Assembly: GCA_008690995.1 (NCBI GenBank) | Contig: VRMN01000001.1 | Location: 1,612,001-1,676,000 of the forward strand | Direction: 5' to 3' | Source of the DNA: Porphyridium purpureum | Lineage: Eukaryota | Length of the DNA stretch: 64,000 nt | Shown: positions 1 to 21,565 of the stretch, one piece after another | How positions within the stretch are numbered: position 1 is the first letter of the stretch | How the letters are laid out: each line of letters starts with the position of its first letter | Made by a program: the position numbers and the translations under genes | The notes under the pieces: generated by a model | Told to the model about the DNA's origin: nothing | Databases searched by the model: none | What the model saw: only the letters and a program-made list of their open reading frames with translations

Positions 1-292
1 TGCGATCTTATATGGAGGTGTTCGGCGCCTACCTTCGCAAAGGTGGTCGTGCGACACTAGGATGAATCCTAGTGAAGGCTGACCGTTACGGCTCTTGCCT
101 ACTAATACGTGCTAAGGCAGAGAGCGAGTCCGCCGTCAAGGCCTAGGCCTATCGTACAGCCAAGACTGAGACCCGCTTCCACCCGTCGCACCCTCCGGAT
201 CGACTTACTCGAACCCCCTTACCCGCAGACTCTCCCACCCAGGCAACCCCGGAGAAGCTCTAAGAGAACCTTAGAGCAACCCCAGGTAACCA

Positions 293-304
293 GCGATGAT
301 ACCA
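293..304 (-). promoter_or_regulatory. Primer-binding site TGGTATCATCGC (initiator tRNA-Met-like)
   Basis: TGG-starting 12-mer 2 nt inside the LTR end. The same motif is at 4888-4899 and nearly the same at 10383-10394. Confidence 0.75.
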
Positions 305-306
305 AA

Positions 307-604
307 TGTTACCAATGCTGTGCCTTTATTCTCTGCGTCTTCTTTCTTACCTCTTCTCTCTCCGAGCAAGACCTGACCGGCTAGTCCGGGCAGGCGCGTC
401 GCCTTTTTATACCCTTACTTCCGCCAGGGACAGCAAGGCGCCAAGAGAAATGACAATGCAAATCATTGGCATTTCTGCGCGCGTCTAGAAGGTTCTGGAA
501 CCTCTAGAAGCTTCTAGAAACGGTTAAACGGTCTACCGGTTTAACGGCTTACCGGTTTCGGATTAACCGAACCGTTCTAGGTGACTGGGGTCGAACGGAT
601 AACA
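307..604 (-). repeat. LTR of Gypsy copy A (298 bp, TGTTA...TAACA)
   Basis: Inverted ends TGTTA/TAACA. Minus-strand TATAAAAAG and AATAAA are present. It matches 4902-5194 with a few substitutions and indels. Confidence 0.85.
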
Positions 605-3549: not shown

Positions 3550-4334
3550 GACTCCAGCGAGTCTCCCTCCAGCTGCTGGATAGTCTTCCTTGCCTCGGGA
3601 CACTTCCTCGCGATGTGTCCCGGCCTTCCACAATTCCAGCATTTGAGCTCGCTTCGAACACGCCTCTGACCCTGCACATGTCCCAGCTCCATCGGGACGG
3701 GTCCTTCCTGCGCTGCACGACCGAAAAATGGCGTCCTCACACTTGAATCACGCACGCCGCGGGTCGCATGAATGGCGTCGTCCACGACCACCGCCACCTG
3801 CGCAGCCTCCGCAAACGTGCTCACTCCTCGCTTGTACACTTCTAAGCGGACCTCGGGCTTCAGACCCCTCACAAAGCGGTCCATCATTTCTGCGTCCGAC
3901 AAGTCCGGAATCACAAGTGCCGCGTCCTGAAAAGCCGCCACATACGCATGGGCCGGGCCTTTCTGCGAAAGACGCGTCAACTTGTCCCTTGCACGCCTGA
4001 TCGAATCCTGCGGCGTGAACCGAGCACTCACGAGGGCAGCGAAATCATTCCACGTCGTGGGGATCTCCTGCGGGTAGCGCTCGCAGTTCAGGACCCACCA
4101 ATGAAGCGCCTCTCCCTCGAAGTAGTCTGATGCCAAGTCCACAGCACGCCTCTCCGCAAGCAGACGTTTCTCCAAATCGTCCGGGTGGATGCTCTCCAAC
4201 AGCCGGCCCAAGATCTTCTTTCTCGCCTGGAACAACCACGTCTTCACAACCAGAAGGTCACGCTTCCCGTCGAACCTCATCTGACGGGCCTCCTTCGGGC
4301 CACGTGGTCCCAGCGTCTCCGAATCAATCTCCAT
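3528..4334 (-). CDS. gag: Gypsy Gag with CCHC zinc knuckle
   Basis: Retrotransposon-gag-like core, DRFVRGL, PMELG, CWNCGRPGHIARKC. Slippery heptamer A AAA AAC (minus strand, 3549-3543) just before the stop. Confidence 0.9.
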   Translation of the reverse strand: MEIDSETLGPRGPKEARQMRFDGKRDLLVVKTWLFQARKKILGRLLESIHPDDLEKRLLAERRAVDLASDYFEGEALHWWVLNCERYPQEIPTTWNDFAALVSARFTPQDSIRRARDKLTRLSQKGPAHAYVAAFQDAALVIPDLSDAEMMDRFVRGLKPEVRLEVYKRGVSTFAEAAQVAVVVDDAIHATRGVRDSSVRTPFFGRAAQEGPVPMELGHVQGQRRVRSELKCWNCGRPGHIARKCPEARKTIQQLEGDSLESKNEELE

Positions 4335-4901
4335 GCTTTCTGGACTAAAGCACGCTCAACGACGACAACGACACAAACAGCAAGCCTCCGATGCTCACTT
4401 TCTCCAACAGCTGCGCGCACCACGAACGGGCTCGGTCGCCCTCACGAACACAAACCGACACACGAAGCTGTCCTCTCACGCACACACACGCACAGCAATC
4501 TTCTCACGCACACACAACAAAGCACACAGCAATCCTCCTCTGTTGCGCTGGATGGGGAGCGGCCCGGGCCTTTGCACTGGGGCGGGGATTATAGATGCGA
4601 TCTTGTATGGAGGTGTTCGGCGCCTACCTTCGCAAAGGTGGTCGTGCGACACTAGGATGAATCCTAGTGAAGGCTGACCGTTACGGCTCTTGCCTACTAA
4701 TACGTGCTAAGGCAGAGAGCGAGTCCGCCGTCAAGGCCTAGGCCTATCGTACAGCCAAGACTGAGACCCGCTTCCACCCGTCGCACCCTCCGGATCGACT
4801 TACTCGAACCCCCTTACCCGCAGACTCTCCCACCCAGGCAACCCCAGAGAAACTCTAAGAGAACCTTAGAGCAACCCCAGGTAACCAGCGATGATACCAA
4901 A

Positions 4902-5194
4902 TGTTACCAATGCTGTGCCTTTTACTCTGCTTCTTCTTACCTCTTCTGTCTCCGAGCAAGACCTGACCGGCTAGTCCGGGCAGGCGCGTCGCCTTTTTAT
5001 ACCCTTACTTCCGCTAGGGACAGCAAGGCGCCAAGAGAAATGACAATGCAAACCATTGGCATTTCTGCGCGCGTCTAGAAGGTTCTGGAACCTCTAGAAG
5101 CTTCTAGAAACGGTTAAACGGTCTACCGGTTTAGCGGCTTACCGGTTTCGGACTAACCGAACCGTTCTAGGTGACTGGGGTCGAACGGATAACA
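4902..5194 (-). repeat. 5' LTR of Gypsy copy B (293 bp)
   Basis: TGTTA...TAACA ends with an adjacent PBS; homologous to 307-604. Confidence 0.85.
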
Positions 5195-8100
5195 TTGTCT
5201 CTACGCAGGAAAACTCTCTGCTTCATCTCTACTCGTGTTTCCAAAAGGGCGGCTTTCTGCTTCAGTGCTTCGTCTCCGCACAAGAGCAGGTCATCAACGT
5301 ACACACCAACAAAACCGCTCTCCTTTTCGTCTTTCGCACAAGTGAACAAACACGGATCAGTACTGACGGAGAAACCAGTCTGCGTCAGGATCGACAAGAT
5401 GCTTTTCGACCAATAAGTTGGCGCATCCACCAATCCATAGAGAGGTAACCGCAGTTTCCACATAACGCCAGAAGCATTTACTGCAGTCCACTCTCGAGGC
5501 GGCACTACATAAATGTCCCTATTCAGCTCCCACAGGGATTGCAGAAACGCCTGGTCGGCGTCTTCGACCCACAGGTCCCAGTCTTTCCGCTCCGCTTTGC
5601 TCATCAAGATCATGCGTACAGAGCTCGTTCTCAGAGTAGGTGCGTTTGACACAAAGAGTTCCTTATCCTTGTCCATGTTGCCAAGTACGGTGAGGCGCGC
5701 TTTCATGCGGTCTGGCTTCACCTTCAACACCCACTTCGTGCGCAAGATTACACTTCCGTGCGGCACCTGCTCAGCGGGGACCAGGTCCCACACATGCCTG
5801 CGTTCGAGGCCTTCTAGCTCAATGCGCTTCGCGTCGTCCCATCTTTCGTCATCTTTCTCTGGCTGCCCCTGTTCCAGATACACAGACTCCGGTCGATCAA
5901 ACCCGTGCGCCGGTTCTCGGTATGGCCGAACAACAGCGACGGAGAATTTGAGGTTCTTTCCATTATCATCCACCACGGCCACGTTCGATGTGTAGTCAAT
6001 CTCTTTCAGGGCATAGGGTCCTTCCCACAAGCGCCTGCGGAATCTGTAGACCTTGACACGATCACCAGGCTTCATCACTCGCTCGGCAGGGTACCTTGAG
6101 GACAGAGCCATACTCAGGCGACGCCGCGCAATCAAGACCTCGTACTCAGTTCTTGCAAACCGCATCACTTCCATTCTCGCGCGCTGATCCGGGCATCCCA
6201 TAATGTTGGAACCAATCGGCGTACGCGGCGTGCATCCAAACACCAGTAAAGTCGGTACGAGACCGTCTGCGTTCATTGAATCGTTCATGGCTTTGGTTGC
6301 GAGTCCAAGTACATCGTCGTCACCAAGACCACTACTGCTCCGCTCCGACTTCAATTTGTTGAGAATCTGTTTCAGCGGCCCGTGCGCTTGCTCACCACGC
6401 CCCATCTGCCACGCACCTTCGATCCCGGCCGTCTCCACACACACCCCCATAGAATTCATCATAGCCACAAAATGCATGTTCACAAACTCGGTACCCATAT
6501 CTACTTTCACAACCTCTGGCAATCCACTCGTGTGTGTCACCCATTCTTTGAGGAACGCAGCAGTCACGTCCTTGGCTGACTTGCTATTAACGTAGCATGC
6601 GAGGGTGTATCCTGTGTCCTTGCATATCATTTGCAGGATTGCTTTGTCACTCGGTCGCTCAGAGAACATGACATCCATTATTACAGTATGGTTAAATCTA
6701 ATCTCGTCCGGCCATCTTGCAGCTACTGCTGGGCGCAAAGGCTTTTGCTCTTGCTCTTCACAGACTCGACATTCCGTTCTCGCCCGCCCCAATTTCTCGG
6801 CTAGCTCTCGCAGTTCATCTTCGTTCATCGTCGGGTCTGCTTTCTTGACTAACTCCAAGACGCGCGTTCCGGTCAGATGACCAAAGCGTCGATGCAGCTT
6901 GGTAGCCTCAACCATGGTATAGAATGACTCAATGTCATTGAGTGACACTAGGTGTCCATTTTTCCTTGTCAATGTCACAGTGTCTCCATTCGGATACTTC
7001 AGCGTCGGTTTCTCACCTACACTGAGCGTGACGCCCTCCAGCGCATCCATACTCATCAAGAATGGCAACGCCTTGTCCGTCTTCTTGTCATTCACCACAT
7101 GCGAGTCAAATTCCACCATACCAGCCGCGTCATCTGTTGGCACCCGCACCCGCACGACTCCGATCGAGTCAAGCACGGTTTGGCCGAAGCGAAAGCTGAC
7201 CGGCTCGCCTTTTCTGATATGCACTGGATTTCGCCTCTTGTAGGCTTCCAAACTCCGCAAGCCCACCACTGAGCGTGGAGCTCCAGTGTCGACACAAAGC
7301 GACATTGTCTGTCGACTCAACTTGGCACCACGGCTCGTAGCGAAGAATACCTCAACTTCGTCCTCATCCTCTGAATCCACGAAATGAGTGTCAAAGGCTT
7401 TGGCCTCCTTTTCACGCTCCGATGCGTCCGCGCTCATCTCGTCATTCTCGGCCTCGTCTACTGTGGTATCGCGCAAGAGCTCCGCCAGTCTCACATCGTC
7501 CTCCACTGTGGCCTTCGGGCACGCCCTCATGAGATGCCACTCCGACGAGCAAATGTTGCATTTCAGGGTCTTACCGTCTCGCCCTGTCCGATTTTTCTTC
7601 CGCTCGTAACGATTCGCCGTCCAGAAGGTGTCACTTTTATCGACCCGCTCCGCCGATGCCGCCAATTTGAGACGCGTGATCGCTTCCTGACTTGTCTTGG
7701 GCGGATTATACCATAGCGCTCTGCTGAAGCTTTCCCCTTTGACCGCCCGCTTCAACGTTATCAACAGATTCTTATCGCTCTGCAAATCACGGTCCAGCTG
7801 ATTCTGCAATGTCGTAGCGGTGGCCATCAGTCGTTCCAGCAGCTTGGTATCGGGCTCGTCGGGGTGCTCACGTCGGAAGGAGTCCAACGAAAGGTTTGTC
7901 CACGCAGTCTCCAGACTGTCCTTCTGATCCTCACCCACAAAACGTTCCCGCAACCTTTTCCACACGTCGCCAATGCTCGCAAACTGATTCCTCTCCTTTA
8001 TAAATAACTGGCGCGCGGCGCCTCCCAGGACCATGTGCACCGCGCTCAAAGCGGTCGCTGCATTCACACCCGCCAGGTCGCAATTCATTCGAAAGTCTTG

Positions 8101-8649
8101 CTCACACAGCTGAATGTCACAGTGCTCAGACCCATCAAACTTTGTTGCTTTCTCCAGATACCGCGCCAATGTTGCCGCTCCACGGTCTACCGTACGAACC
8201 AGTCGTCCACTTGCCACACTGTCATCATCAGGTATCATTCTTTTCAAGACGTTAATGTACCGCTCGTTGCTGTCGAAGTCCAAGCCTCCCTGACGTTTCA
8301 GGAAGAGAGCGACTTCACGCTGCTTTGCACACGAAAGGCCATCAATCATTTTCCTTGATGCTGACAAAGCAAATTCATCCAGCAAGTTTGGTCCGCTCAT
8401 CAAGTCCAGTACCGACCGTTTCAGCTCTTCCCATTCCGCAAGCGCGTGCTCGTCACTTGGTGTGGCGGTCTGCGAGGCAAGTCCAATGCTTGCAGCACCA
8501 CTCGCACCAGCGTCTTGCGCCACAGACCCTGGTGGGCTTCCTGTTCCCGACCCCATTGCTTCTGCTTCCTCGGACGACGACGTATCTGGCATTCCGCTCT
8601 GTCTCGGCTGATCCCTCCGACGTTGCACAGCACCGCGCGTCTGCGTCAT
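5167..8649 (-). CDS. Copia Gag-Pol polyprotein (truncated in RT); start taken at ATG MTQTRG, and the ORF is open to 8739
   Basis: CNICSSEWHLMRAC, LCVDTGA, LHRRFGH...CRVC, MDVMF/VDMGTEF/GEQAH (DDE), KWVLKVK...KARL, LYGLVDAP, VYVDDLL. Ends in the same LTR-derived VIRSTPVT. Confidence 0.85.
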   Translation of the reverse strand: MTQTRGAVQRRRDQPRQSGMPDTSSSEEAEAMGSGTGSPPGSVAQDAGASGAASIGLASQTATPSDEHALAEWEELKRSVLDLMSGPNLLDEFALSASRKMIDGLSCAKQREVALFLKRQGGLDFDSNERYINVLKRMIPDDDSVASGRLVRTVDRGAATLARYLEKATKFDGSEHCDIQLCEQDFRMNCDLAGVNAATALSAVHMVLGGAARQLFIKERNQFASIGDVWKRLRERFVGEDQKDSLETAWTNLSLDSFRREHPDEPDTKLLERLMATATTLQNQLDRDLQSDKNLLITLKRAVKGESFSRALWYNPPKTSQEAITRLKLAASAERVDKSDTFWTANRYERKKNRTGRDGKTLKCNICSSEWHLMRACPKATVEDDVRLAELLRDTTVDEAENDEMSADASEREKEAKAFDTHFVDSEDEDEVEVFFATSRGAKLSRQTMSLCVDTGAPRSVVGLRSLEAYKRRNPVHIRKGEPVSFRFGQTVLDSIGVVRVRVPTDDAAGMVEFDSHVVNDKKTDKALPFLMSMDALEGVTLSVGEKPTLKYPNGDTVTLTRKNGHLVSLNDIESFYTMVEATKLHRRFGHLTGTRVLELVKKADPTMNEDELRELAEKLGRARTECRVCEEQEQKPLRPAVAARWPDEIRFNHTVIMDVMFSERPSDKAILQMICKDTGYTLACYVNSKSAKDVTAAFLKEWVTHTSGLPEVVKVDMGTEFVNMHFVAMMNSMGVCVETAGIEGAWQMGRGEQAHGPLKQILNKLKSERSSSGLGDDDVLGLATKAMNDSMNADGLVPTLLVFGCTPRTPIGSNIMGCPDQRARMEVMRFARTEYEVLIARRRLSMALSSRYPAERVMKPGDRVKVYRFRRRLWEGPYALKEIDYTSNVAVVDDNGKNLKFSVAVVRPYREPAHGFDRPESVYLEQGQPEKDDERWDDAKRIELEGLERRHVWDLVPAEQVPHGSVILRTKWVLKVKPDRMKARLTVLGNMDKDKELFVSNAPTLRTSSVRMILMSKAERKDWDLWVEDADQAFLQSLWELNRDIYVVPPREWTAVNASGVMWKLRLPLYGLVDAPTYWSKSILSILTQTGFSVSTDPCLFTCAKDEKESGFVGVYVDDLLLCGDEALKQKAALLETRVEMKQRVFLRRDNVIRSTPVT

Positions 8650-9005
8650 GTCCTTCCGTTTCCCTTTAAATCGCGATTGTTGTAGGAAACGCCTTCCCAC
8701 TCTGTGTGCACCGCGTGTCACAGTCCCTCGACTGTACACACACGGTGCTCACCTCCTGTTCTTCCTTGCTGCCAAAGGACCGTTGTGCAGCTTCCCAACA
8801 CCTTGTAGGCTCTTTCTTCTTCGTCAACGGTGCCCTCTTTATTTCGGCTCACTCTAATCTAACACCTGTCGAACGTACTTTATATACCTTTCTGTCCAAA
8901 ACGGTCCGCTCGAGAAAACGCCCCCTCAGGCGCAAAAAACTCTGCGTCCGTTCCCGTCACGACCCCCTGGACGGTCGCACAACCGAATTATTGTGGGCCA
9001 CGACA
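5195..9005 (-). mobile_element. Ty1/Copia-order LTR retrotransposon, interrupted in RT by Gypsy copy B
   Basis: Single gag-pol ORF in the order knuckle-PR-IN-RT, broken exactly at the Gypsy LTR end (5194). Confidence 0.85.
8804..9005 (-). repeat. Probable 5' LTR of the Copia element (about 200 bp)
   Basis: Minus strand starts TGTCG at 9005, contains TATATAAAAG and AATAAA, and may end CTACA at 8804. Only one copy is in the window, so the boundary is uncertain (alternative end 8867). Confidence 0.45.
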
Positions 9006-10089
9006 CTACTGTGCGCCCTCTTTCACGTCAGCAAGCTCTGGCGCGCCCTGTTCCTCATCAGCAGGTTCATTCGCGTGCGTTCGGCTCGACCCATTTGCAC
9101 GAAGTTCACACACCAGGCACATGACGGATTGACCTTTCGTGTTCCTATTTTTTATTTTTCGCTCATGTGTGCTCTTGCAAGATGGCGTGATCTTGCTGAC
9201 GAGACAGTACACGTGAGAGGAGAATGGCAAACCTCGACTGCCTGAAAGTGCACTCCTTAGTATTGGTTTGTTGGTACGTCGTATCGCACGCCAGTGCCTG
9301 CCGACGCTCGCATTGTGTACATTGAAGACATTAGTCACTGACGACAACATGCTCACGTGGGTCCAGACAATACCGACGAGGCATTCGCATCAAGCTTGAT
9401 TCCTGTTTGGACCGTCAAACAATTTACGTAGAATCGAGCCGCAATACGAGTGAATGGATGAAGCGTCACATGACAAGGTGAAGCCGCGCTGCTTTTTTTG
9501 CGCTGGAGGTGCTGATGCAGCGCACATTCAATACGTGTTCTTGGCATCTGGAACGGCATGAACATGGGAATGCCAAGTAATGGTCGTCCGTGCTTGCTCT
9601 TTCCCAGCGACACGATATGGCCTGAGATGTTTGCAAACTGTGAAGAGAACTTCGAAATCCTCGCGACGAGCTCGACGATGACCCGTGGGGGCGCCACGAT
9701 TGTACCCGCAATGACTCGAGGGGTCGTCACCAATGGGGGCGCCAAGGTGACGACCGGTACGCGTAGCGGACCACCACGTGCGCGCGCTGTGCGAGCCTCA
9801 GCCCACCTGGGTCCGGGGGCGCGAGGCCGAGATATAAAAGAGGTGCCTGTGTCTTTGTCGTGGTGCTTGTCTAGACTAGGAGGCAGAGATGAATCGGTCT
9901 TAAGGTATAAAGGCGGCTTTGGAATCAGAAAGTCATCATCTCTCGGTAAGGCGACAACGTGCACCATGGCATTCGTCTACGCTCATGCCCCCATTCATAA
10001 TCCTGGTTCACACAAACTAATCGTCGCCTAACTTGGTGCACATGTGCGCACGTGTGTCGACGCTTTGCCTTCACCGTTTTGAGATTCTA

Positions 10090-10382
10090 CGGTAAAGAGT
10101 GCGGTTACAAAATCGAAAACGTAACGGAAGGAGGGACTGTTGACGGTCTCAGAGCAGCTTTATACGCTCTTGATTGTGAAGCCAAACGGTCACTACCCCT
10201 TGGGTCAGGACCGTCTGTGCACGACCATTCCAAGTTGAGGGATATATAACTAGCACGTAGCACAGCCTCCTATCTAGTCCGACAATAAAGAGAGAAGGGC
10301 AAGAGACAAGCCCAGTTAAAAGCATTCACAAAACCCCTGCACTAAGGAGCAGGGTATTGGAGTGGCGACGCTCTCTTCACAG
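10090..10382 (+). repeat. Left terminal direct repeat (canonical TG..CA core 10138-10381 plus a 48-bp 5' extension)
   Basis: Identical by eye to 15742-16034. Contains GATATATAA and AATAAA. Confidence 0.88.
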
Positions 10383-10394
10383 TGGTATTATCGC
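10383..10394 (+). promoter_or_regulatory. Primer-binding site TGGTATTATCGC
   Basis: Immediately after the LTR; one mismatch to the Gypsy PBS TGGTATCATCGC. Confidence 0.75.
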
Positions 10395-10428
10395 GTAATT
10401 CGAGACGAGGGATTAAGAGCCTTTCAGG

Positions 10429-11181
10429 ATGGATCAGCGCTCGCTTGGAAGGGCCGGGGAACCGTCATCTCTGTGCTCCCGACTGGACACATACGACGGA
10501 GACCGCGATGCGCTCAAGATTCGCACATGGTTGTTTTCTGCACGAGAAACAATATTTGTGCCAATGCGGGAGAACGTGGGCACCGGCGTGGCCGGCGCAG
10601 AGCTTCCGGCACGCGCAGTACGGACCGCCGCGACGTATCTGCGGGGTTCTGCCCTTATTTGGTATATGACACAGCAGCGTTTTACTTCCTGGGACACCTT
10701 TGCCACCGCACTGGAGGTAGCCTTCATGCCCCCTCATGCGTCCAGGGCCGCGCGAGACGAGCTCGCGAACTTGTCGCAGTCTGGCTCCATCGTAGAGTAC
10801 ACAAATGCGTTCAGCAGGATTACCATGATGATCCCTGGAATCACCCAGGACGAGAAGATGGATCGTTTTGTGCGTGGACTTCGTTCTCAAATTCGGGTTG
10901 AAGTCTTAAAAGCCAGTGTCAGTACAGTTGATCAGGCAATGCAAGTAGCGTGTGCGGCTGAATCAGCCTACGGGGCGGGGGCATTGCATCACCCAGTGCG
11001 CGCGCCGAGATACGATGAGGGAGGCGCGGCCCCGATGGAGCTCGGTGCCTTTAACGGGGGAAAACGTCAGCCGGGACGTGGGCCTGCGTGCTGGAATTGC
11101 GGAAAGCGCGGTCACTTGAAGGCAGACTGTCGTGCAGCAAAGAGGGAGGCGGGAAAAGGCCTGCTCCCGTCCGCGCAGTAG
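10429..11181 (+). CDS. gag: Gag (Ty3/Gypsy-type) with CCHC knuckle
   Basis: Aligns by eye with Gypsy Gag 3528-4334: DG.RD...TWLF.AR, ARD.L..LSQ.G, MDRFVRGL, PMELG, CWNCG..GH....C. Confidence 0.88.
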   Translation: MDQRSLGRAGEPSSLCSRLDTYDGDRDALKIRTWLFSARETIFVPMRENVGTGVAGAELPARAVRTAATYLRGSALIWYMTQQRFTSWDTFATALEVAFMPPHASRAARDELANLSQSGSIVEYTNAFSRITMMIPGITQDEKMDRFVRGLRSQIRVEVLKASVSTVDQAMQVACAAESAYGAGALHHPVRAPRYDEGGAAPMELGAFNGGKRQPGRGPACWNCGKRGHLKADCRAAKREAGKGLLPSAQ

Positions 11182-11942
11182 AGCCGACGGGAGATAAGGA
11201 AGTGCTCAGGCTTGATGTCATGGGGTATGGTCGCGAGCGTCCGGCGACAATAAACAAGAAGGGCAACTTCGGTCGCGAGCACCCGGCGACGAAAAATAAG
11301 AAGGGTTGGCACAGGCGCGAGTGCCCCGAGAAAATGAGAAGGGGATGTCAGGATAGCATCGATTTGTTTGCCCCCACGCGAACAACAAAGATATTGTTGG
11401 ATGGTTGTGTATCGGCATGTGCGCTGATAGACAGCGGCGCCAGTGCATGCTTCATTCGCGCTGACTTGGCGAAGATGCTGCGAGCACGACGAAGTCGAGC
11501 GCCGGACGTTGAGGTCAGCCTCGCGGACAATACACCCATCGAGGTGTCCGGTTTGATTTGCCCCACCGTCCATATGCACAGAAGCCATGAGTGGTGTTTC
11601 CCATCTACAGAGCTTCCGATTCCATTCCTTATAGTCGAGAATCTGAAGCATGAGGCGATTTTCGGCATGCCCTGGATTCAGAAATTCCTGCCAGGATGGG
11701 GCCGACGGTCAGATCTAAGCGCATTGCCTGTCATTGCCACCGATTGGCAGCATATGCTCACTCATCAGCCAAAATCAGACTCCTGCCGCGCATGTATCGT
11801 CGGCAAGATGAGAAGACGCCCGTCGCGGCGGACAGGAGGCCAAGCGACCGAGGCATCTGAACTATGTGTGGATCTGATAGACTGTGGAAGGGACGAGGAG
11901 GCATGGGGGCGTGGCGGGGAGCGGTACGCACTGGTGTGCGTT
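11151..11942 (+). CDS. pol: Pol N-terminal part (protease, integrase HHCC and first catalytic Asp), -1 frame; interrupted by the solo LTR
   Basis: ALIDSGASACF...AIFGMPWI protease; HMLTH...CRAC; LCVDL; ERYALVCV up to the insertion. Confidence 0.8.
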
Positions 11943-12988
11943 TGTCACGAACCGTGCTGGCCCAGGACACAGCGGCACACCCAACAGCAAGCCAAGCGGC
12001 ACACGCACGCACACAAGCTGGACAATCCACGCAACCAAGAGGAAACACAAGACACCCGTAGTCAACTGGACCTGCGGCAGGCAGGAAACCCGGAACCAAC
12101 GACGCTCACGCACGCTGCTCACACGCAAACAGCCAAGAGCACCCACACACGGGACCGACAGAACCAACCAAGAGCAGGCACACGGGAAAGACACAGCCAA
12201 CCAAGAGCACACGCACGGAGCAGGCACAGCCAACCAAAAGCACACACACGGAAGACGCGCGTAACGGGGGAACCAGGCGTCCGCTGCCCAACCGGGATCC
12301 CGTTCGGCCACACTTTACGGTGATCCGGGACCCGGGGAGGCGTTGTGGGCAGCCGGGGTTAGCCGGAGGAGGTTACCTCACCTTTCGGCTTCAAACGGCC
12401 TATCACTCCTTTATCCGCCCCCGCCCACGTACCACCCCCGGATCCGCTTCCGAACAAGGACCGTCTAACGACGCCTTACCCCAGGGCATCCGCGAACCTT
12501 CCCCGTTAAACCCCCCGCTCGCTCACTCGCGCTGTACTCCCGCCGTACCCCCGCTGTACTCCCGCTGTACTCCCGCTGTACCCCCGCTCCTCAACAGGTA
12601 CCCAAGGCCCGAACACGCTTCCTTGAATACACCTGTTTTTACTTAGATCCACCTTCCTCCTTCTGTCTCCCGACCCCCCTCTCCCCCCCTTGGTTGCCGA
12701 CCCGCGCGTCTTTTTATACCCATCGCGACCACTGTACCCCCGAGGTACAGTGCCTTGCTGTCGCTGAGTCTAGAATCTCCCAGAAGGTTCCAGCCACCTC
12801 CTGGCTGTACACCCATTCCATACTGGGTGGTCATCGCGCGTCTGGTCCCTAAGGGAAGGGGCCTTCAGGCCTACCACGCGCCCCCTTGTACACCTACAGT
12901 ACAGTGGGTCCGGCGCGACCAGGTATCCGGCCACGGACTATGGCTATTTTTTAATCATTTCCTTAACACACGGGCTACTCCCGTGACA
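11943..12988 (-). mobile_element. Solo LTR (1046 bp) of an unrelated family
   Basis: Perfect 7-bp inverted ends TGTCACG...CGTGACA. 4-bp TSD CGTT (11939-11942 and 12989-12992). Removing it restores the in-frame sequence LVCV-DRRDGWLSVQPM. Minus-strand TATAAAAAG near 12712-12718 suggests the orientation. Confidence 0.85.
12530..12588. repeat. 11-bp tandem repeat (CCGCTGTACTC)n, about 5 copies, inside the solo LTR
   Basis: Read directly from the sequence. Confidence 0.85.
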
Positions 12989-12992
12989 CGTT

Positions 12993-15776
12993 GATCGTCG
13001 CGACGGATGGCTCAGCGTTCAGCCAATGCGTGAAAAGACAGCACGAGCTGCCGCAGACGCCTTGATTAGCGTGATGGCCGGCACTCAGTGGCCGCGAGCG
13101 ATCAAGACGGATGAAGGCTCCGAATTCCGCGGAGCCTTTGAGGCGCTGGTAAAAGCACAAGGTGCAGAAGCTGTGTACGCGGTGCCGGGAAGTCCAAACA
13201 CTCACGCACTGAGTGAGTCCCGGAATCGAGATCTGCTTGAACCAGTCCGTGCTGCACTTGTTCAATCGGGCCTGCCGGCACACTTCTGGCCTGACGCTGT
13301 TTCTCATCATGCGTTTACGTACAACAGGTTCGGCGCACAACACGGTCGAAAGAGCTCTTTTGAACGCAGATACACAAAAGAGTACAAGCGTACAAAGTTG
13401 GCTCCGTTCGGCTGTGCAGTGCTCTATTTTGACGAAGAAGCAAGAAAATATGATTCAAGAGCAAAGTTGGGTGTGCTTTTACGATATCACGGGGAGGTAG
13501 GTTATGTCGTGGCTGACGTAGAAGATCTTTCGCGTGGGGTCATTCGCGAAATTATCACGCGCGACTGTGAATTCAAGAAAATGGAATTTCCGGCCTGCAA
13601 ACTTGGCATGCGGCCGCTAGGCGAGCGGCTGTGGCTGGACGAAGAAGGTCCCCAATCGCTCGGACTACCGACAGAAAAGTGTGGACGCTGCGAGAAAGTC
13701 CGAGTGAGTCAAGTTGGCTGCGCAAGATGCCTGGGCAGACGTGCCCGTCGACACCGGCGGGATGAGACTTGTATGATGGGGGCGTGTCGCTGTACACCAG
13801 AACAACTGCTTGGCCACGGACGGAGATTGGCACGGCGGGCCGAAGCCGAACAGGAACGCTCAGCATCCATCAGGGACAGGGAAGATAGGCGCCAGAGTCG
13901 CGAACAGGCAGCCCAGTCCAGACGAGCGCGAAAGGAAGAAAAGAAAGCGCGGCGACAAGCAAGAGTTGCCGCGCGATCGGCACAGCTCGAGCCACGGGCG
14001 CAGCCAATGCAGCCGGGAGCTGCCACTCGCTCCGGCAGGATCACTCGCGTGCCTGTGCGCTATGCGCACGAGTTGAATGTAACCACCGTAGTCCCGCGCA
14101 GTGATGCTTTGAGACAGGTCCGATTCAAGTTGGCCCGTGAGGAGGAGATGAGCCGTATGCGGCGGTTCAATGTTTGGGAAAGCGCACCAGTATCTTTGGT
14201 TGATGCTCGAAAACTTTCAAACATGAGTTTGGTTCGCTGCCACTTTATCTACACTGTTAAGCACAAAGAGTTGGGGATAGACGCTGAGGTGCCGAAAGCT
14301 CGTTTTGTTGCGGCCGGAAATAACATTCGTGACGCGATGGGCGTGTGTGTTGGGCAAGAAGTTCCGTACGCGACCCCCTCCAGCCTGGCGGCCATGCGGA
14401 TGGCCCTGGCATGGGCTGCGGCGAGAGACTTTGCGGTGACAAAGATGGACATGACATCCGCGTACCTGCAAGTGGAGTTGCAAGGTGATCCAGTATTTAT
14501 TCAACTGCCACAGGAGGCTGCGAATAATACTTCGGAGGTGTATCGACTCAAAAAGGCAATTTACGGCCTTCCGAGGTCAGGGACCGATTTTATGCGTGAG
14601 GCAGCGAAAAGACTTTGCGTGCGCGGTTGGCGAGAAACAGCGCCGTCGGTCTTCTGGCGGAACGAGTGCATGTTGGTTGCATACGTGGATGATTACCTTA
14701 TTGTAGGTCCCACCGCGGCGATTGAGAGAGTAGAAACCGAAATGCGTGAGACGTTCATTTTCGATAATGCGCCAGAGCGGCTGACTCAACAGCATGCGAT
14801 ATCTTTTCTCGGGATGAAGTTGGGGCGTGGACGGTCGCACATATACATTGACCATACAGCGTACGCGGAGCACATCACATGCTCACATGTGAAATCAGTA
14901 TTCGAAAAGGGGCAGGGTTCCATCCGCCTGCCAAGGTCTCCGGACACGAAACTTGAACCGTCTGAGCTAGAGAGTCCTTTGATTTTGGGGCACGAGCGGG
15001 CGCAAATAGGTGCGCTGCTATGGATTACGCGGACGGTAAGGCCTGATCTGGCTCGTGCAGTTGCACGCGTGGCGCGCTGTGTCGATAGCTGGTCCGTAGG
15101 GGCGCAAAAGCTTCTCGACAGAATCTTGGGATATTTGAAAGCTCACCCGAAGAGCATTATTTGTTATCCAGTGATAAGACAAGACGCAGAAAGTCTTAGA
15201 GCGAGCAAGATCGTAGTTTTTGCAGATTCTGACTTCGCGGGCGATGAGGGCGCCGGAGCCAAGAGCACAACAGGAGTGGCAGCTTTTTTTGAGGTGCAAG
15301 GACAACGCTACGTCCTGGATTGGACCTCGCGAGTGCAGAAGGCCGTTGCGACGTCATCAGCGGAGGCAGAGATTGTCGCTCTCTCCACCGCATGCAAAGG
15401 TGCGTTCACGCTTGAAGCCCTCTGCGGGTTTCCGGGAAAAACAGCGAGCATTCACATCTTCAGCGACAGTCAGGCCGCTTTGCGCGCCGTGAGGAAAGGA
15501 TATTCGGCGAAGCTCGCGCACATACGCAGAACACAACGAGTTTCCATTGCGTGGCTTAACAGCCTAACGGAGAAGCGACTCATGCGCTTCGACTGGGTGA
15601 GCGGCAGACAGAACCCAGCGGACTTGTTCACAAAGGCCTTTGGCCCGTACGAGTTCGCCAGAAGGCTGACTTTATTGGGGCTTGAAGGCCAAAGGATCAC
15701 GCGGGACCCCTGGCTCGATAAAGCCAGCTCTGATGGGGGCGCGGTAAAGAGTGCGGTTACAAAATCGAAAACGTAA
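12993..15776 (+). CDS. pol: Pol C-terminal part: integrase core, Copia-type RT and RNase H (ORF track starts at ATG 13026)
   Basis: IKTDEGSEF, SESRN, PFGCAV..., KARFVAAG, IYGLPRSG, AYVDDYL, FADSDFAGD, KSTTG, SSAEAE, DSQAAL, NPADLFTKA. Confidence 0.9.
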   Translation, partial: DRRDGWLSVQPMREKTARAAADALISVMAGTQWPRAIKTDEGSEFRGAFEALVKAQGAEAVYAVPGSPNTHALSESRNRDLLEPVRAALVQSGLPAHFWPDAVSHHAFTYNRFGAQHGRKSSFERRYTKEYKRTKLAPFGCAVLYFDEEARKYDSRAKLGVLLRYHGEVGYVVADVEDLSRGVIREIITRDCEFKKMEFPACKLGMRPLGERLWLDEEGPQSLGLPTEKCGRCEKVRVSQVGCARCLGRRARRHRRDETCMMGACRCTPEQLLGHGRRLARRAEAEQERSASIRDREDRRQSREQAAQSRRARKEEKKARRQARVAARSAQLEPRAQPMQPGAATRSGRITRVPVRYAHELNVTTVVPRSDALRQVRFKLAREEEMSRMRRFNVWESAPVSLVDARKLSNMSLVRCHFIYTVKHKELGIDAEVPKARFVAAGNNIRDAMGVCVGQEVPYATPSSLAAMRMALAWAAARDFAVTKMDMTSAYLQVELQGDPVFIQLPQEAANNTSEVYRLKKAIYGLPRSGTDFMREAAKRLCVRGWRETAPSVFWRNECMLVAYVDDYLIVGPTAAIERVETEMRETFIFDNAPERLTQQHAISFLGMKLGRGRSHIYIDHTAYAEHITCSHVKSVFEKGQGSIRLPRSPDTKLEPSELESPLILGHERAQIGALLWITRTVRPDLARAVARVARCVDSWSVGAQKLLDRILGYLKAHPKSIICYPVIRQDAESLRASKIVVFADSDFAGDEGAGAKSTTGVAAFFEVQGQRYVLDWTSRVQKAVATSSAEAEIVALSTACKGAFTLEALCGFPGKTASIHIFSDSQAALRAVRKGYSAKLAHIRRTQRVSIAWLNSLTEKRLMRFDWVSGRQNPADLFTKAFGPYEFARRLTLLGLEGQRITRDPWLDKASSDGGAVKSAVTKSKT

Positions 15777-16034
15777 CGGAAGGAGGGACTGTTGACGGTC
15801 TCAGAGCAGCTTTATACGCTCTTGATTGTGAAGCCAAACGGTCACTACCCCTTGGGTCAGGACCGTCTGTGCACGACCATTCCAAGTTGAGGGATATATA
15901 ACTAGCACGTAGCACAGCCTCCTATCTAGTCCGACAATAAAGAGAGAAGGGCAAGAGACAAGCCCAGTTAAAAGCATTCACAAAACCCCTGCACTAAGGA
16001 GCAGGGTATTGGAGTGGCGACGCTCTCTTCACAG
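15742..16034 (+). repeat. Right terminal direct repeat (canonical core 15790-16033)
   Basis: Copy of 10090-10382, followed by TSD TTCTA. Confidence 0.88.
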
Positions 16035-16641
16035 TTCTAGTAAATTGAGCTGCTTTAGTATTAAATGACACGTATGCTGGAGCGGAGGACGGGCTCTGGT
16101 CGAGCTCCATTGTCAGCATCAGCAGCCAGTCTCACCCGCGCTCCGATTCAAGCTCACCAATGTACACAAAGACACGTGTAGATTGCTGACTTGATGACGA
16201 GGATCACTGTCTGGACGTTGACAACGCGCACGTATGACAGAGCTTTGCGTCGGGTACGGAACTGCGCAAAGACCCGCACAGCAAGAGAACGTCATCAGAG
16301 CCTGCAATCGTGGACTGCCAGCCGCGACTAATTTGCGATACTTTGCTTCAGGATTGTGATTCTGTAGAGCCCCGTGCTGGAATAAGCGCCGGGTCGTCGG
16401 CTTTACAACGAAACCACGTTGTGGCGAGGTCGCCTAGGTTCAAAGCTTGCTGAAACGATCCCTTCGACGTGGTCGACATGGCGTAGAATCCAGGATGATG
16501 CGTCATATCTTTCCCAGTGCGCAAGAGCAACCACTATAAAAGACGTGTGTCTCTGCTGTTGCAAGGAGTGAAGCGCAGTAGAGATACCAAGAGCAGGACG
16601 AGAATATCATGCATCGAATGGAGCCAAGAAGAGAATCGACC

Positions 16642-16821: not shown

Positions 16822-19003
16822 CTGTATCTTTTTTCCTGTCCATGTGCTTACCTTGAGAATAAATGCGTGTCGATAAACTCAAATGCAAAGGCCCATGACG
16901 GGCAAATTTCTCACGAGCTTGGCCAGGTGCTCAGCCTGAAATGCACGCTCTGTTTGCGACCCCGCGCGAGATAAAATAAGAAAGCAAATGCAAATCAATG
17001 TTTTCAAAATGCACGAGCGTCGAGGCTCAGTCCCCTTCACCCGCATTCATACAGGCCGATGCGATCGAGTCGGGAAAATACATGAAGAAAAAGACTTTGC
17101 TCAACTCGAGGACACTGCTGGTGCCGCTCCGACACATCTGCCGACCAAACTTGGCTCTCTGAAGCAGAAGAAGAAGAAGATACGTGCTCGCTAAGGACGA
17201 GCTTTGGCTGCAGCTGGATATATGATGAAACACTTGCGTGGTTGCTCGGACAGATGTCAGAGTTAGCAATGCATTGTATGATGTCGCTCGCATTACAACG
17301 CTCGAAATGCGCAGGTCACACTATGGCGCCATGAGCTTCCAAGCCTGCACGAAGCTCGATCCTTTCCACTGATCCTGCGCGGATGACAGCTGAGCTTTCT
17401 TGTCGTATCTGTGATGCCTTAAATTTGATATCATCGCATATCCTTCCACACGCCGTCAGCCAGTCTCGCAGGGAGATCTTCAATGCAGCAGAAGTGAATG
17501 GACCGGTTGACTCGGCAGTGCGGTGTGGCGTTCGACGGAGCAGCGAGATCGTCGTGCATACTGGGATGGATGGCCCTTCGAACGCCCTAAGCAGGTAGAA
17601 AATGCGCTGGACGGTGAGGCGTGTAAATTTCGGCAGACAGTAGAGCACACCAGAGGATGCACGAAGAGCGCAGTGACGGAAGCATTCGCTTGTTAAAATG
17701 CAGAACGGCAAGCAAAGCCAGAATAAATTAGACGAAACCAGCAAAAACGGGCCAGAGAAAAGCCGCGCGAAATGAAAGCAAATGTCACGACCTCGAGCGA
17801 ATGCACAAGGGCACAGCGTGTGGGAAAGAAACGAGACTGCACCCAACTTTTCCAGCGAGTCTTGAAACGATGGAGCAAGGCTCGCGCGGCACAGGTGAAC
17901 AGCTGCGCTCCATAATCGAGGCGTGACGATGATAATATGTACCATGCGTGCATGAACATTTCGGTAATCTTATCGTGTAGCCGTTCTGTGTAAGACAGAC
18001 ATCACGGAGCACCAATACCAATGCCAGCCACAACCCCGATGGGCTGCTGTCGGGCCTGCACAGGCGACACGACGCTCCTGACTTGGAGTCGGCGGTGTGA
18101 ACGGCATTTTCCTCTTCAGCTGCCGTCGCCACCCTTCGCTCCGTCTTGCAGGATGCGCATCGACCGAACATTTGACGCAAAGACACGCCTTGCTTCCCGC
18201 GCAAGTGAGTCACTCGAAACGGCAACAGGACTCGAGTTACTCAAGCTGCGAAAGCCCCTTCATCGTCTCGTCCAAGCGTATGATTCATTCATGGCCAGCA
18301 CGCGGATAGGACCCGGAGTGAACAGTCATGGCGGGTCGCCACAAGCGGAAACACGCTGCGGCTCCTTGGCACTTGAGCCGTTTCCTCCCTCCGAGCAAAC
18401 CATCTATTAAAACACCCCCGTTTTATCGGAAACATCGGAAACCGCGCTCGATTTGGAAATGTTGCGCGTGTTTCATGGAGGCGATGGAGACGACGCGGCG
18501 CACGGATACGCGGCGTTGCGCGGCAACGCACAGGAAGGAGTGGTTTCAGGTCATCATGGAATTCAAAATGTGGCTGCACGCGCCCTCCGAAAAATTCGCG
18601 CGAGTTTTGCATCTGTCCTGAAATGTGTCTACATGATCCGATCGATGCGCCAAATTCGTGCGTGCTCGCGTGCGCACGTGGCCAGTCCAGGCGTCTCAGA
18701 GCAAGAGGAAACGGTCTCCGCGTAGGTTGCCGACGGAAAACAGCAGTGCCTGTGTCTGAAAATATGTTGCTGTGGTTGTGAAAATCTCTCTGTGGTGTCA
18801 CCTTTGTGATGAGAGGGACAGGTCCGCGTCAGGGCGCACACGCACGGGCGAACATCCGCAAGCATATAAAAGAGCGATTGGGTCTGAGCCCACGGAAGTT
18901 TGTGTCGTTCCTGGAAGAGGACTGTAACTCTAAGAAGCGGAAAAGGCAGAAAGACTCGATAACAGGGAAAACGAGACAAGGCAAACCTGCGTTTGTTGTG
19001 GCC

Positions 19004-21565
19004 ATGCAAAAAGTCGTGGCAGTGGCCATTGCGGTCGCGGTCGTTACCGGTGTGGCTCATGCTCACGGAACCTTGGCATTTCCGCCGAGTCGAGCATACT
19101 ACTGCTGGCAGAATCCAGCGGCGGGCGACTGCGGCAAGGTTTCCGAAGCAGTCAAATCGAACTGGATGGAAGTCGGCCAGTATTGTGGGGCGGGCCAGGA
19201 ATGTGCTCCACCCGCAGCAACGCAGCTGTGTTCTGGAAATAAGGAAATCTACTCGGACGTCGAGCGCGTCGATTTACATTGGTACCGCACCGAAATCAAT
19301 CGGACTGGGGAGGTGCGATTCAATTTCTTAACGACTGCAGACCACCTGGGCACGGTCAGCATCTACATGACGACTGATGATGCGCCGCTCGATGTTCCGC
19401 TAGCACCTCAGCACTTGGAATTCATGTGCTCGTATTCTTGGGATGCAGGTACGAACGACGGAAGCAAGCTCAAGACGTTTAGCTGCCCGGTACCCGCGAG
19501 AGTGCGTGACGAACATGTTATTCACGCGGTTTGGGAAGCACAGATTACCGCGAACGAGCTCTTCATGAGCTGTGCTGATGTGCGGCTTGTGGACCATGCG
19601 TTGGCACCTTCTGCTACGCCAGATAAGTACGGCATGGAGCATACGCATGGTGACACGCAGACCGGCTCGTGCAATGCGCAGCAGCTCGCCGCATGCCCAA
19701 GAGGTTGCTTGTGGATTGAGGCGAATGCGTGCTATGCTGAGTGGGACCGCGCCACATGCGAGCGTTACACCGAGCATGGTTATGTCTTTTGCGGAGTGTC
19801 CGCAAGCGACCATGGCGACGCGGTCCCGGTGGAACCTACCTCCACACCTACTACGCCTGTTCCGTCGCCCAGCGAAACGGAGACCGGCTCTATTCCTTCA
19901 CTTGAATGCGGAACCTGCCGCGGATGTCTGTGGCTGGCTGCCGGTCCGGTGGGCTGTTATGCGTGGCAGCAGGCGACGTGCGAATTTCACGCGGAACACG
20001 GGTACATTTGGTGTGGTGGACAAGTCGACCAGCCTGGAGGGCAGAAATCCGAAGAGCCGTCTCCAACTGCTGCGCCAATCTCCAGTTCGAGCCCGAGCCC
20101 GAGCCCGAGCCCAGCTCCAAGTGCCGACCCACTATCCAATAGCGTTTGCGGTAAGTGTGTGGGATGCCTGTGGCTAGAAGCGGGGCAAATTGGATGTTAC
20201 CCATGGCCAAAGACGACGTGTGAGCAGTACGCTGGACATGGGTATCTCTGGTGTGATGGACAACGCGAGGAAGGAGGCGGTCCTTCACAGAGTCCTTCTT
20301 CGCCTCTCACGCCGACGCCGCAACCAGCACCGACAACAACACCAACACCGTCGCTGCCACCAAGTAACGCCCCGGAGCCCGAACCGACGGGCGGCGACTT
20401 ACCCGAGAAGGGTGCTGAAATGAGCTGCTCGGAAGTGCTGGAGAAGCTGAAAAATCTGGACACGAGCAGAATCCTTGTTTCGCAGCAGCCTGACCTCTCA
20501 TACGCTCCGAGCGAGGTGTATGTCTGGCAGGACGGATACAAAGCGATGCTCGACATGTATGAGCAGGGCGTTGGACCACTCAGGCTGTGGCTCGGAGACA
20601 GCAGTGCGCAATGCACGTATGGTCTCGTGAATATCGCCGCGTTCCTGTCGCAGGCGATGAAAGAGACGATCATGTACGACGCGTGCGATGAAAACAATTG
20701 GGACGCGTCCAGCGGCTACGCAGCTAGCAATGCGTGTGGTCAGTTGGGTCAGTCGTACCAAGACTACACATGCGCGCCTAGCGAAGAGCACATGCAGTGC
20801 CAGAATGATCCGACTTTGCGCATCGTTGCAACGACCCACGCCAAGTGGTACGGAGCGCCGGGTCCTCTGTTCTGCGGACCCAAGGAGGAAATTCCGCAGA
20901 GCCCGAAATGGAACTATGGCTCGCCTTGGTGCAGTCGTACGGTCGACTACGGCAAGCCCGTGGAGACGTATTCCGAACTTTGGGAGTATCTGTTTGACTC
21001 GCAAGACATTTGCCGCGATTATGCTGGACAGCAGGCTGGAGGCTGGGAGTTTTGTCCGGGCGGATGCCCGAACGCTCCAGCAACTGCTTTTGGTCGCGCA
21101 GCGCGCACCGACGTCGAAGGGTGTGCATGGTGGGGCCGCGGCATTATTCAGACGACCGGAATCTGCAATTTCGGAAAGCTCAACTATTATCTGGGCGCCC
21201 GCGCGGCACGCGAAGGCCGCGACTCGCTGTACCCCGATATTGACTTTTGCAAGGACCCCGAGGCGGTCTGCAACAGCGCGCGCCATCCAGAGCTCAAGTG
21301 GGTTGCTGGCCTTTTCTACTGGCTTGAGAGCGTGCAGTCGTACAGGAGCACGTTGGGCGACGGCTGGACTTACATGGACGCGCTGAGGCAGTTTGTGGAC
21401 GCCGGCATGCCGTCTCCAGGCGCCGACACAGGCTTTATCCGCAGTGTTTCTGGTATTGTGAACCGTGGATGCCACAACCCGCCGTGCGCCGCGGGCGCAG
21501 TCGATGGCGGCGCGGACCGCGCCCACAACTTTGAGACCGTGCTCTCGGCCATGGGCCTCATCTAA
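19004..21565 (+). CDS. Secreted AA10-type LPMO + three Cys/Trp-rich repeats + GH19-like chitinase
   Basis: 20-aa signal peptide followed by HGTLAFPPSRAYYC (His1), TTADH, FMSCADV. C-terminal NIAAFLSQAMKET, WGRGIIQTTG..NFG, WVAGLFYW, SGIVNRG. TATAAAA at 18865. Confidence 0.85.
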   Translation: MQKVVAVAIAVAVVTGVAHAHGTLAFPPSRAYYCWQNPAAGDCGKVSEAVKSNWMEVGQYCGAGQECAPPAATQLCSGNKEIYSDVERVDLHWYRTEINRTGEVRFNFLTTADHLGTVSIYMTTDDAPLDVPLAPQHLEFMCSYSWDAGTNDGSKLKTFSCPVPARVRDEHVIHAVWEAQITANELFMSCADVRLVDHALAPSATPDKYGMEHTHGDTQTGSCNAQQLAACPRGCLWIEANACYAEWDRATCERYTEHGYVFCGVSASDHGDAVPVEPTSTPTTPVPSPSETETGSIPSLECGTCRGCLWLAAGPVGCYAWQQATCEFHAEHGYIWCGGQVDQPGGQKSEEPSPTAAPISSSSPSPSPSPAPSADPLSNSVCGKCVGCLWLEAGQIGCYPWPKTTCEQYAGHGYLWCDGQREEGGGPSQSPSSPLTPTPQPAPTTTPTPSLPPSNAPEPEPTGGDLPEKGAEMSCSEVLEKLKNLDTSRILVSQQPDLSYAPSEVYVWQDGYKAMLDMYEQGVGPLRLWLGDSSAQCTYGLVNIAAFLSQAMKETIMYDACDENNWDASSGYAASNACGQLGQSYQDYTCAPSEEHMQCQNDPTLRIVATTHAKWYGAPGPLFCGPKEEIPQSPKWNYGSPWCSRTVDYGKPVETYSELWEYLFDSQDICRDYAGQQAGGWEFCPGGCPNAPATAFGRAARTDVEGCAWWGRGIIQTTGICNFGKLNYYLGARAAREGRDSLYPDIDFCKDPEAVCNSARHPELKWVAGLFYWLESVQSYRSTLGDGWTYMDALRQFVDAGMPSPGADTGFIRSVSGIVNRGCHNPPCAAGAVDGGADRAHNFETVLSAMGLI

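Follow-up and report, generated by a model that had tools for sequence, protein, structure and literature searches.

In a 64,000-nt window of Porphyridium purpureum DNA (contig VRMN01000001.1; all positions refer to this window), we analyzed a long terminal repeat (LTR) retrotransposon at 10090-16034. It very probably joins a Ty3/Gypsy-type Gag and protease (PR) to a Ty1/Copia-type integrase (IN), reverse transcriptase (RT), and RNase H (RH), is one of several families of this build, and goes back to an old module replacement. Copia and Gypsy are regarded as separate ancient lines whose parts are inherited together. By RT and gene order, the element would be classed as Copia; because its Gag and protease lack the Copia markers and its RT and gene order are not those of Gypsy, we filed it as a hybrid. 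The coding features and the junction between the two halves are as follows:

10429 to 11181, plus strand: gag, 250 aa, Ty3/Gypsy-type capsid and one CCHC knuckle, assigned from Pfam, alignment, Atlas, and profile comparison
11361 to 11720, plus strand: aspartic protease, assigned to the Gypsy (ILG) type, catalytic Asp at 11430 and G-x-x-W at 11664-11675; ends approximate
11676 to 11750, plus strand: Gypsy-to-Copia junction zone; the Gypsy-type motif ends at 11675 and the match to the Copia-type sister P0034 begins at 11727 (E 0.006)
11751 to 11942, plus strand: integrase, first part, with a short HHCC finger (11751-11795) and the start of the core; colinear with P0020 and P0023
12993 to 13793, plus strand: integrase, second part, with the catalytic core, an SH3-like domain (13392-13592), and a Cys/His-rich motif (13680-13793), assigned from Pfam, tree, and motif scan
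14118 to 15776, plus strand: Copia-type RT (YVDD at 14682) and RNase H, assigned from RVT_2 and RT-RH trees; the frame ends 35 bases within the 3' LTR

The Gag exceeded the Pfam cut-offs for Retrotrans_gag (E 2.7e-14), Ty3_capsid (E 1.7e-10), and zf-CCHC, and the Gag of a neighbouring Gypsy element scored the same three families. Both Gags align end to end at 38% identity, which bears out the initial annotation, where they had been described as matching. None of the Copia Gag families (Retrotran_gag_2, DUF4219) was matched by the element Gag in Pfam at E-values up to 0.1; in the same host, true Copia Gags do match these families. A profile of three hybrid Gags reached E 4e-48 against two Gypsy Gags (35% over 227 columns), compared to E 1e-12 (16%) against seven canonical Copia Gags and E 0.11 against a control set of sister Gags, the boundaries of which were guessed. 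BLASTP of the Gag without its knuckle gave E-values of 1e-37 and 7e-36 for Gypsy, while the best value on the Copia side was 0.9. Longer proteins were searched with the Gag profile as well, and two of 7991 candidates were recovered, namely a true Gypsy Gag-Pol (RVT_1) and a Gag-protease. Ty3_capsid, PEG10, and RVT_1 clusters were the Atlas neighbours of the Gag, and a sequence search of the PDB returned zinc knuckles as the only matches. The predicted fold (predicted local distance difference test score 73.6) is that of a retroelement capsid, with Copia, PEG10, dArc, Ty3, and Ty1 capsids all at Z 10-14. On these comparisons, the Gag is assigned to the Ty3/Gypsy type.

All Pfam matches of the protease (Asp_protease_2, gag-asp_proteas, and RVP_2) were under the cut-off, and Pol_BBD was absent from them; the proteases of the relatives P0041 and P0036 are above the cut-off for Asp_protease_2 or gag-asp_proteas. 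A sequence search of the PDB gave no protease matches. According to the available passages of Llorens 2009 (PMC2774666), LLS is the protease motif of Copia and ILG that of all others, with very few exceptions. An ILG-type end was present in all seven hybrids, and an LLS-type end in nine of the ten Copia sisters tried, the remaining one giving no match. The protease tree comprised 29 rows, as five of the 34 rows tried had no match to the cutting pattern and were left out, and it separated seven hybrid and two Gypsy rows from 20 Copia rows at 100/100. Approximately unbiased (AU) tests rejected a forced grouping of the hybrid proteases with the Copia sisters (p = 0.020 and 0.028, mixture model) and did not reject a single clade of hybrid proteases (p = 0.57). 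The protease is thus assigned to the Gypsy type, and the resemblance to the Gypsy protease noted at the outset extends to the ILG-type end and the grouping in the tree. A grouping of Gag or protease with Copia, which would have spoken against a chimera, was found for neither protein by trees, AU tests, or profiles.

The picture changes downstream. The frame at 12987-15776 scored RVT_2 above the cut-off (E 5.5e-14), with weak SH3_retrovirus and rve matches ahead of it, giving the order IN-RT-RH; this gene order and the Copia motifs listed in the initial annotation were recovered in the translation. A quick RT-RH tree of 73 rows, rooted with Gypsy, placed the element within Copia, where it belongs to a clade of 53 rows characterized by a short HHCC finger (100 in the Shimodaira-Hasegawa-like approximate likelihood ratio test). 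The short finger of the element is also found in its Copia sisters. In a careful tree of 35 rows with canonical Copia as outgroup, the element was nested in a 28-row Copia clade at 100/100, and hybrid groups and sisters formed an unresolved fork. An integrase tree of 43 rows, with one row omitted, placed the hybrids with the same Copia sisters at 90/92, apart from two Gypsy integrases. RT-RH and integrase trees were built without named Ty1, GalEa, or CoDi references, and the clade is therefore left unnamed. The Cys/His-rich motif in the integrase tail was conserved in 10 of 16 proteins scanned, among them both hybrids and Copia sisters. Taken as sequence-based assignments, integrase, RT, and RNase H are of Copia descent. 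Some relatives carry a weak Myb-like domain at the site of the Cys/His motif; both could possibly act as targeting modules.

The junction between the halves, expected at about 11690-11750, was placed at 11676-11750. Contigs bridge it in all four of four sequencing runs from four studies (one of which may be the source) with 0-1 differences, spanning 10354-11972, 10292-11970, 11066-11953, and 11198-11972, and 20 of the 24 listed runs contain part of the element. These bridges cover the Gypsy/Copia switch because the Copia-type finger starts before a 1046-bp insert that interrupts the integrase. No LTR or repeat match was found at the junction, and third-position GC shows no step across it (0.58 versus 0.59). 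The relatives P0020, P0023, P0041, P0036, and P0183 each align over the junction with a single match and show no interruption there. A check for a hidden LTR, a target-site duplication (TSD), or a misassembly at this point thus came out clean. One might suspect that half of a Gypsy and half of a Copia element became joined at this locus only, through a single nested fusion or an error in the assembly, as the region is a nest of retroelements, the insert lies 200 bases past the junction, and no contig covers the whole element. We consider this hardly credible, and largely refuted, given the bridged junction without LTR or repeat match, the Copia-type finger ahead of the insert, the identical LTRs and single duplication that enclose both halves, and four diverged families with the same junction. 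We likewise rejected the idea that the insert had caused the chimerism.

These families were found among the relatives of the element. The best pol matches are P. purpureum proteins with 51% and 46% identity (16 matches of 7984 candidates), and the sole Gag match in that search, P0018, runs from Gag through protease to the HHCC finger. P0020, P0023, P0036, and P0041 combine a Ty3 Gag, an ILG-type protease, the short HHCC finger, integrase, and RVT_2 in a single predicted chain. These four hybrid families of P. purpureum share 31-52% RT identity with the element. We distinguished group A (the element, P0020, and P0023), group B (P0036/P0175 and P0041/P0177-P0179), and group C (P0183, which covers the part from protease to RT). 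Identities within group A are 50% for Gag, 49-57% for integrase, and 46-52% for RT-RH, a similar divergence as expected if the modules have travelled together since the swap; for groups B and C, RT-RH identity is 31-34%. The same build in four diverged families argues for a lineage rather than a misassembly or one-off fusion, so that the recombinant lineage proposed earlier is supported. Among the best 150 pol relatives in a 50%-cluster library, many of which are fragments, two (P0036 and P0041) have a full Ty3 capsid in the chain. The unnamed proteins P0031 and P0037 cluster with the hybrids and are without their front ends.

Searches further afield returned no additional hybrids. None of 24 distant metagenome loci (22-32% identity) had a Ty3-type capsid or protease, viral contigs scanned with alignments of Gag and of hybrid and Gypsy pol gave no relatives, and the single Gypsy locus from a scan of prokaryote genomes had no usable Gag and therefore added no Gypsy reference. 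One Gypsy pol (L025) lies on a contig filed under an archaeal metagenome-assembled genome and is likely a eukaryotic contamination. An Atlas search with P0020, from which RVT_1 and the Copia Gag and protease families were excluded, yielded RVT_2 clusters only, none with a Ty3 capsid; small clusters were outside this search.

Several points weigh against a Gypsy origin of the front end and against a lineage of this kind. The superfamilies cannot be told apart by the fold search, as the Gag fold matches the Copia capsid at Z 12.2 (root-mean-square deviation 7.0, 159 aligned), the PEG10 C-domain at Z 14.3 (1.5, 83 aligned), and Ty3 at Z 10.9 (4.2, 147 aligned). Retrotrans_gag by itself is not diagnostic, since the plant Copia P0004 has it too. 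With the simpler LG+G4 model, a tree that grouped the nearest hybrids with Copia sisters was not rejected (AU test, p = 0.081, 99 columns). The protease rows were delimited by their end motifs, so that the tree is not independent of the LLS/ILG marker. The Gypsy side of the Gag and protease trees consisted of just two references, each taken from this host, for which reason the donor clade is not placed. The named hybrids are all P. purpureum gene models known from predicted proteins, possibly from the same assembly as the window, and in P0020 and P0023 a predicted splice connects gag with pol. The insert is not covered from end to end by any contig. Finally, ILG-type proteases occur outside Gypsy as well.

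With regard to this last point, the Gag-protease module could stem from another ILG-type source, for example a domesticated host gene, Bel/Pao, or a retrovirus-like element: the available passages of PMC2774666 assign the ILG motif to every protease outside Copia, and our trees contained no Bel/Pao, retrovirus-like, or host references. Such a source is very improbable, as Gypsy elements of this host that carry RVT_1 give the top Gag matches, the Gag has a single CCHC knuckle and a Ty3_capsid match above the cut-off, and the group C protease retains a motif common to the local Gypsy protease (37%, E 2e-10). A swap might also be unnecessary if the element belonged to a deep Copia branch that retained an ancestral Ty3-like Gag and ILG protease, with other Copia having changed theirs. 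The fold common to Copia and Gypsy capsids, the weak profile match of E 1e-12, and the fork of hybrid groups and sisters in a careful RT tree without the named references would agree with such a history. We nevertheless regard it as unlikely: the Gag is 36-38% identical to same-host Gypsy Gags, including an N-terminal motif, which exceeds the RT identity between hybrid groups (31-34%), and within the clade of the element, sisters from several branches carry LLS proteases placed with canonical Copia, so that repeated convergence would be needed.

The favored history is therefore a module replacement, in which the gag-protease module of a Gypsy from the same host would have taken the place of the original one in a Copia of the lineage with the short-HHCC integrase. 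The crossover would lie between the end of the protease and the integrase finger (11676-11750, with sister likeness from 11727), and could have occurred by a template switch between co-packaged RNAs, or by a nested insertion followed by deletion. Such a breakpoint leaves the capsid with its own protease, which may explain the viability of the hybrid. We rejected the neighbouring Gypsy as the direct donor. Because it shows 36-38% amino-acid identity to the element and no DNA match over 30 bases, the swap appears to be old and this Gypsy a relative of the donor. The transcript would make Gag and, via a -1 frameshift, Gag-Pol; the Gypsy-type protease would cleave its own Gag and the Copia-derived enzymes alike, a tRNA would prime Copia-type reverse transcription within a Gypsy-type particle, and integration of the copy by the Copia integrase would produce a 5-bp duplication.

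An unrooted Gag tree of eight rows placed group A with Gypsy against group B at 97/95; groups A and B also formed one side of a branch at 81/83, so that the tree agrees with one capture as well as with several. Three further P. purpureum proteins (P0184, P0186, and P0187) have a canonical Copia Gag, protease, and integrase together with an RT-RH of the short-HHCC clade. They look like another type of mosaic from this host and hint at frequent swapping. As a broader and tentative proposal, Gag-protease and IN-RT-RH may be exchangeable over the Gypsy/Copia divide: this Copia lineage would have captured Gypsy modules several times (groups A, B, and C) and, in the same alga, passed its RT-RNase H on to front ends of canonical Copia, forming an undescribed class of viable cross-superfamily retrotransposons.

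We compared the element to known systems. With Ty1/Copia (Pseudoviridae) of the short-HHCC clade (P0034, P0033, P0043, P0044, P0046, and P0188), it shares the order PR-IN-RT-RH, RVT_2, the ancestry of integrase and RT-RH, the Cys/His motif in the integrase tail, and a 5-bp duplication. It differs from them in its Gypsy-type Gag and protease, a gag/pol overlap in the -1 frame, and CG..AG LTR ends, and it has neither the LLS protease nor the Copia-type Gag that mark this superfamily. Ty3/Gypsy elements (Metaviridae) of the same host (577-4355; P0025/P0191) resemble it in Gag (33-38%), the ILG-type protease, a nearly equal primer-binding site (PBS), and a slippery site at the end of gag. The element carries the Ty3-type capsid and ILG-type protease of Ty3/Gypsy, but not their RVT_1-type RT, their order RT-RH-IN, or their long HHCC finger, and there is no likeness at the DNA level.

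The nearest precedents are Gmr1 and PyRE10G. Gmr1 is described in the available passages of PMC2774666 as a Ty3/Gypsy lineage with Copia-like gene order; it shares the Gypsy-type front end and an integrase directly after the protease, but combines a Gypsy RT with the integrase placed before it, whereas in our element integrase, RT, and RNase H are themselves assigned to Copia. PyRE10G is likewise a reported Copia/Gypsy mixture in a red alga, in which the Gypsy-like part is the integrase by the title of the paper, and which is placed with GalEa (PMC3587641, available part); our element instead has a Copia-type integrase and a Gypsy-type Gag-protease. The PBS of GalEa and PyRE10G is given as TGGTAGCAGAGC in the available part of PMC5445492 and differs from that of the element. 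CoDi-A of diatoms is also a Copia with a Gypsy-typical feature, in this case a chromodomain on the integrase; the available passages of PMC2774666 do not state a Gypsy Gag or protease for it. A search of full-text literature, with Repbase, GyDB, and most subscription journals outside its reach, found no description of a Gypsy Gag-protease on Copia enzymes. Mixing reported so far concerns gene order, single accessory domains, and recombination within Copia (the latter in the available part of PMC6317226). A lineage of several families with a Gypsy particle and Copia enzymes would mean that the structural and the enzymatic half can be exchanged over the divide without loss of viability. Old questions become testable, such as which module sets the specificity of particle, priming, and processing, and whether a protease is able to adapt to cleavage sites foreign to it. 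As stated in the available part of PMC6317226, a major reference survey discarded chimeric-looking elements as likely mispredictions and demanded TG..CA ends; this is a blind spot, because both its chimera removal and its TG..CA rule would exclude the present element.

The pol frame is in the -1 frame relative to gag and open from 11055, in agreement with the initial annotation, and an in-phase GGGAAAA at 11151 precedes the end of gag:

11151 to 11193, plus strand: predicted -1 frameshift signal, slippery GGGAAAA at 11151-11157 and hairpin at 11164-11193, in gag phase

The 42 bases following this heptamer had the best fold of 1471 gag-protease windows (z -3.7; equalled by 2 of 1000 shuffles), with the hairpin starting after six bases; in a 101-base window, the hairpin was not significant (z -0.6). 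A second in-phase GGGAAAA heptamer is found at 11058-11064, right where the open pol frame begins, and frameshifting there would omit the zinc knuckle.

The element is delimited by the following features, with TTCTA on either flank:

10085 to 10089, no strand: left TSD, 5 bp, matching 16035-16039
10090 to 10382, plus strand: 5' LTR, 293 bp, ends CG..AG, identical to the 3' LTR
10383 to 10394, plus strand: PBS, abutting the LTR and matching the PBS of the neighbouring Gypsy at 11 of 12 bases
15732 to 15741, plus strand: short polypurine tract candidate, directly 5' of the 3' LTR, putative in function
15742 to 16034, plus strand: 3' LTR, identical to the 5' LTR (293/293 bases)
16035 to 16039, no strand: right TSD, 5 bp, same as 10085-10089

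Paired LTRs, a PBS, a purine tract, and a target duplication, as expected of an LTR retrotransposon, are thus all present. The LTR termini are CG..AG rather than TG..CA, with CA one base inside the right end, and there is no spacer before the PBS. Other copies of the element in public read contigs stop at identical LTR boundaries (loose ends at 15742 and 16034), and the integrase may join unusual ends. The tRNA matching the PBS is presumably initiator tRNA-Met; no tRNA gene was found within the window. The near identity of the PBS to that of the Gypsy element, pointed out earlier, holds at 11 of 12 bases but is weak evidence of ancestry, because tRNA-Met priming is frequent in Copia and Gypsy alike (PMC6317226, available part); a common PBS as proof of Gypsy origin was rejected for the same reason.

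The integrase of this copy is split by a repeat:

11943 to 12988, no strand: 1046-bp non-coding TG..CA repeat in the integrase, flanked by a 4-bp duplication (11939-11942 / 12989-12992)

The repeat has inverted ends, and much deeper read cover together with loose ends at both edges identifies it as a high-copy repeat. Insert and duplication add up to 1050 bases, and the integrase flanks are in one phase. Among the rows shown, contigs enter the insert in four of four runs and exit it in three of four. The four contig sets listed no joint that bypasses the insert; as contigs lose rare forms, intact copies may exist. Since the insert splits the integrase in the read sets as well, this copy lacks the uninterrupted integrase of an autonomous element and is likely disabled. 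Identical LTRs and an intact TSD had been taken as signs of a recent move; they fit a recent insertion, although the element is likely non-autonomous now. The insert repeat is also translated at the end of P0026, directly behind the protease of a group B element.

Further retroelements surround the hybrid. A solo LTR at 9639-10012 (374 bp, TG..CA, 5-bp duplication) lies 77 bases ahead of it and encodes the first residues of P0186, so that the gag of the P0186 family begins inside its LTR. Other copies of this solo LTR in the reads continue into a different PBS, which resembles a half-tRNA site. The neighbouring Gypsy (1-5194, minus strand) is a tandem, with PBS and leader repeated after its 3' LTR at 1-300, and sits inside the RT of another Copia at 5167-8748. 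Outside these elements, an open frame at 18782-21565 (plus strand) encodes 927 aa with Cys-rich repeats, by eye presumably a chitin-binding or chitinase-type protein, and a tandem repeat with a 147-base period is located at 38102-38641.

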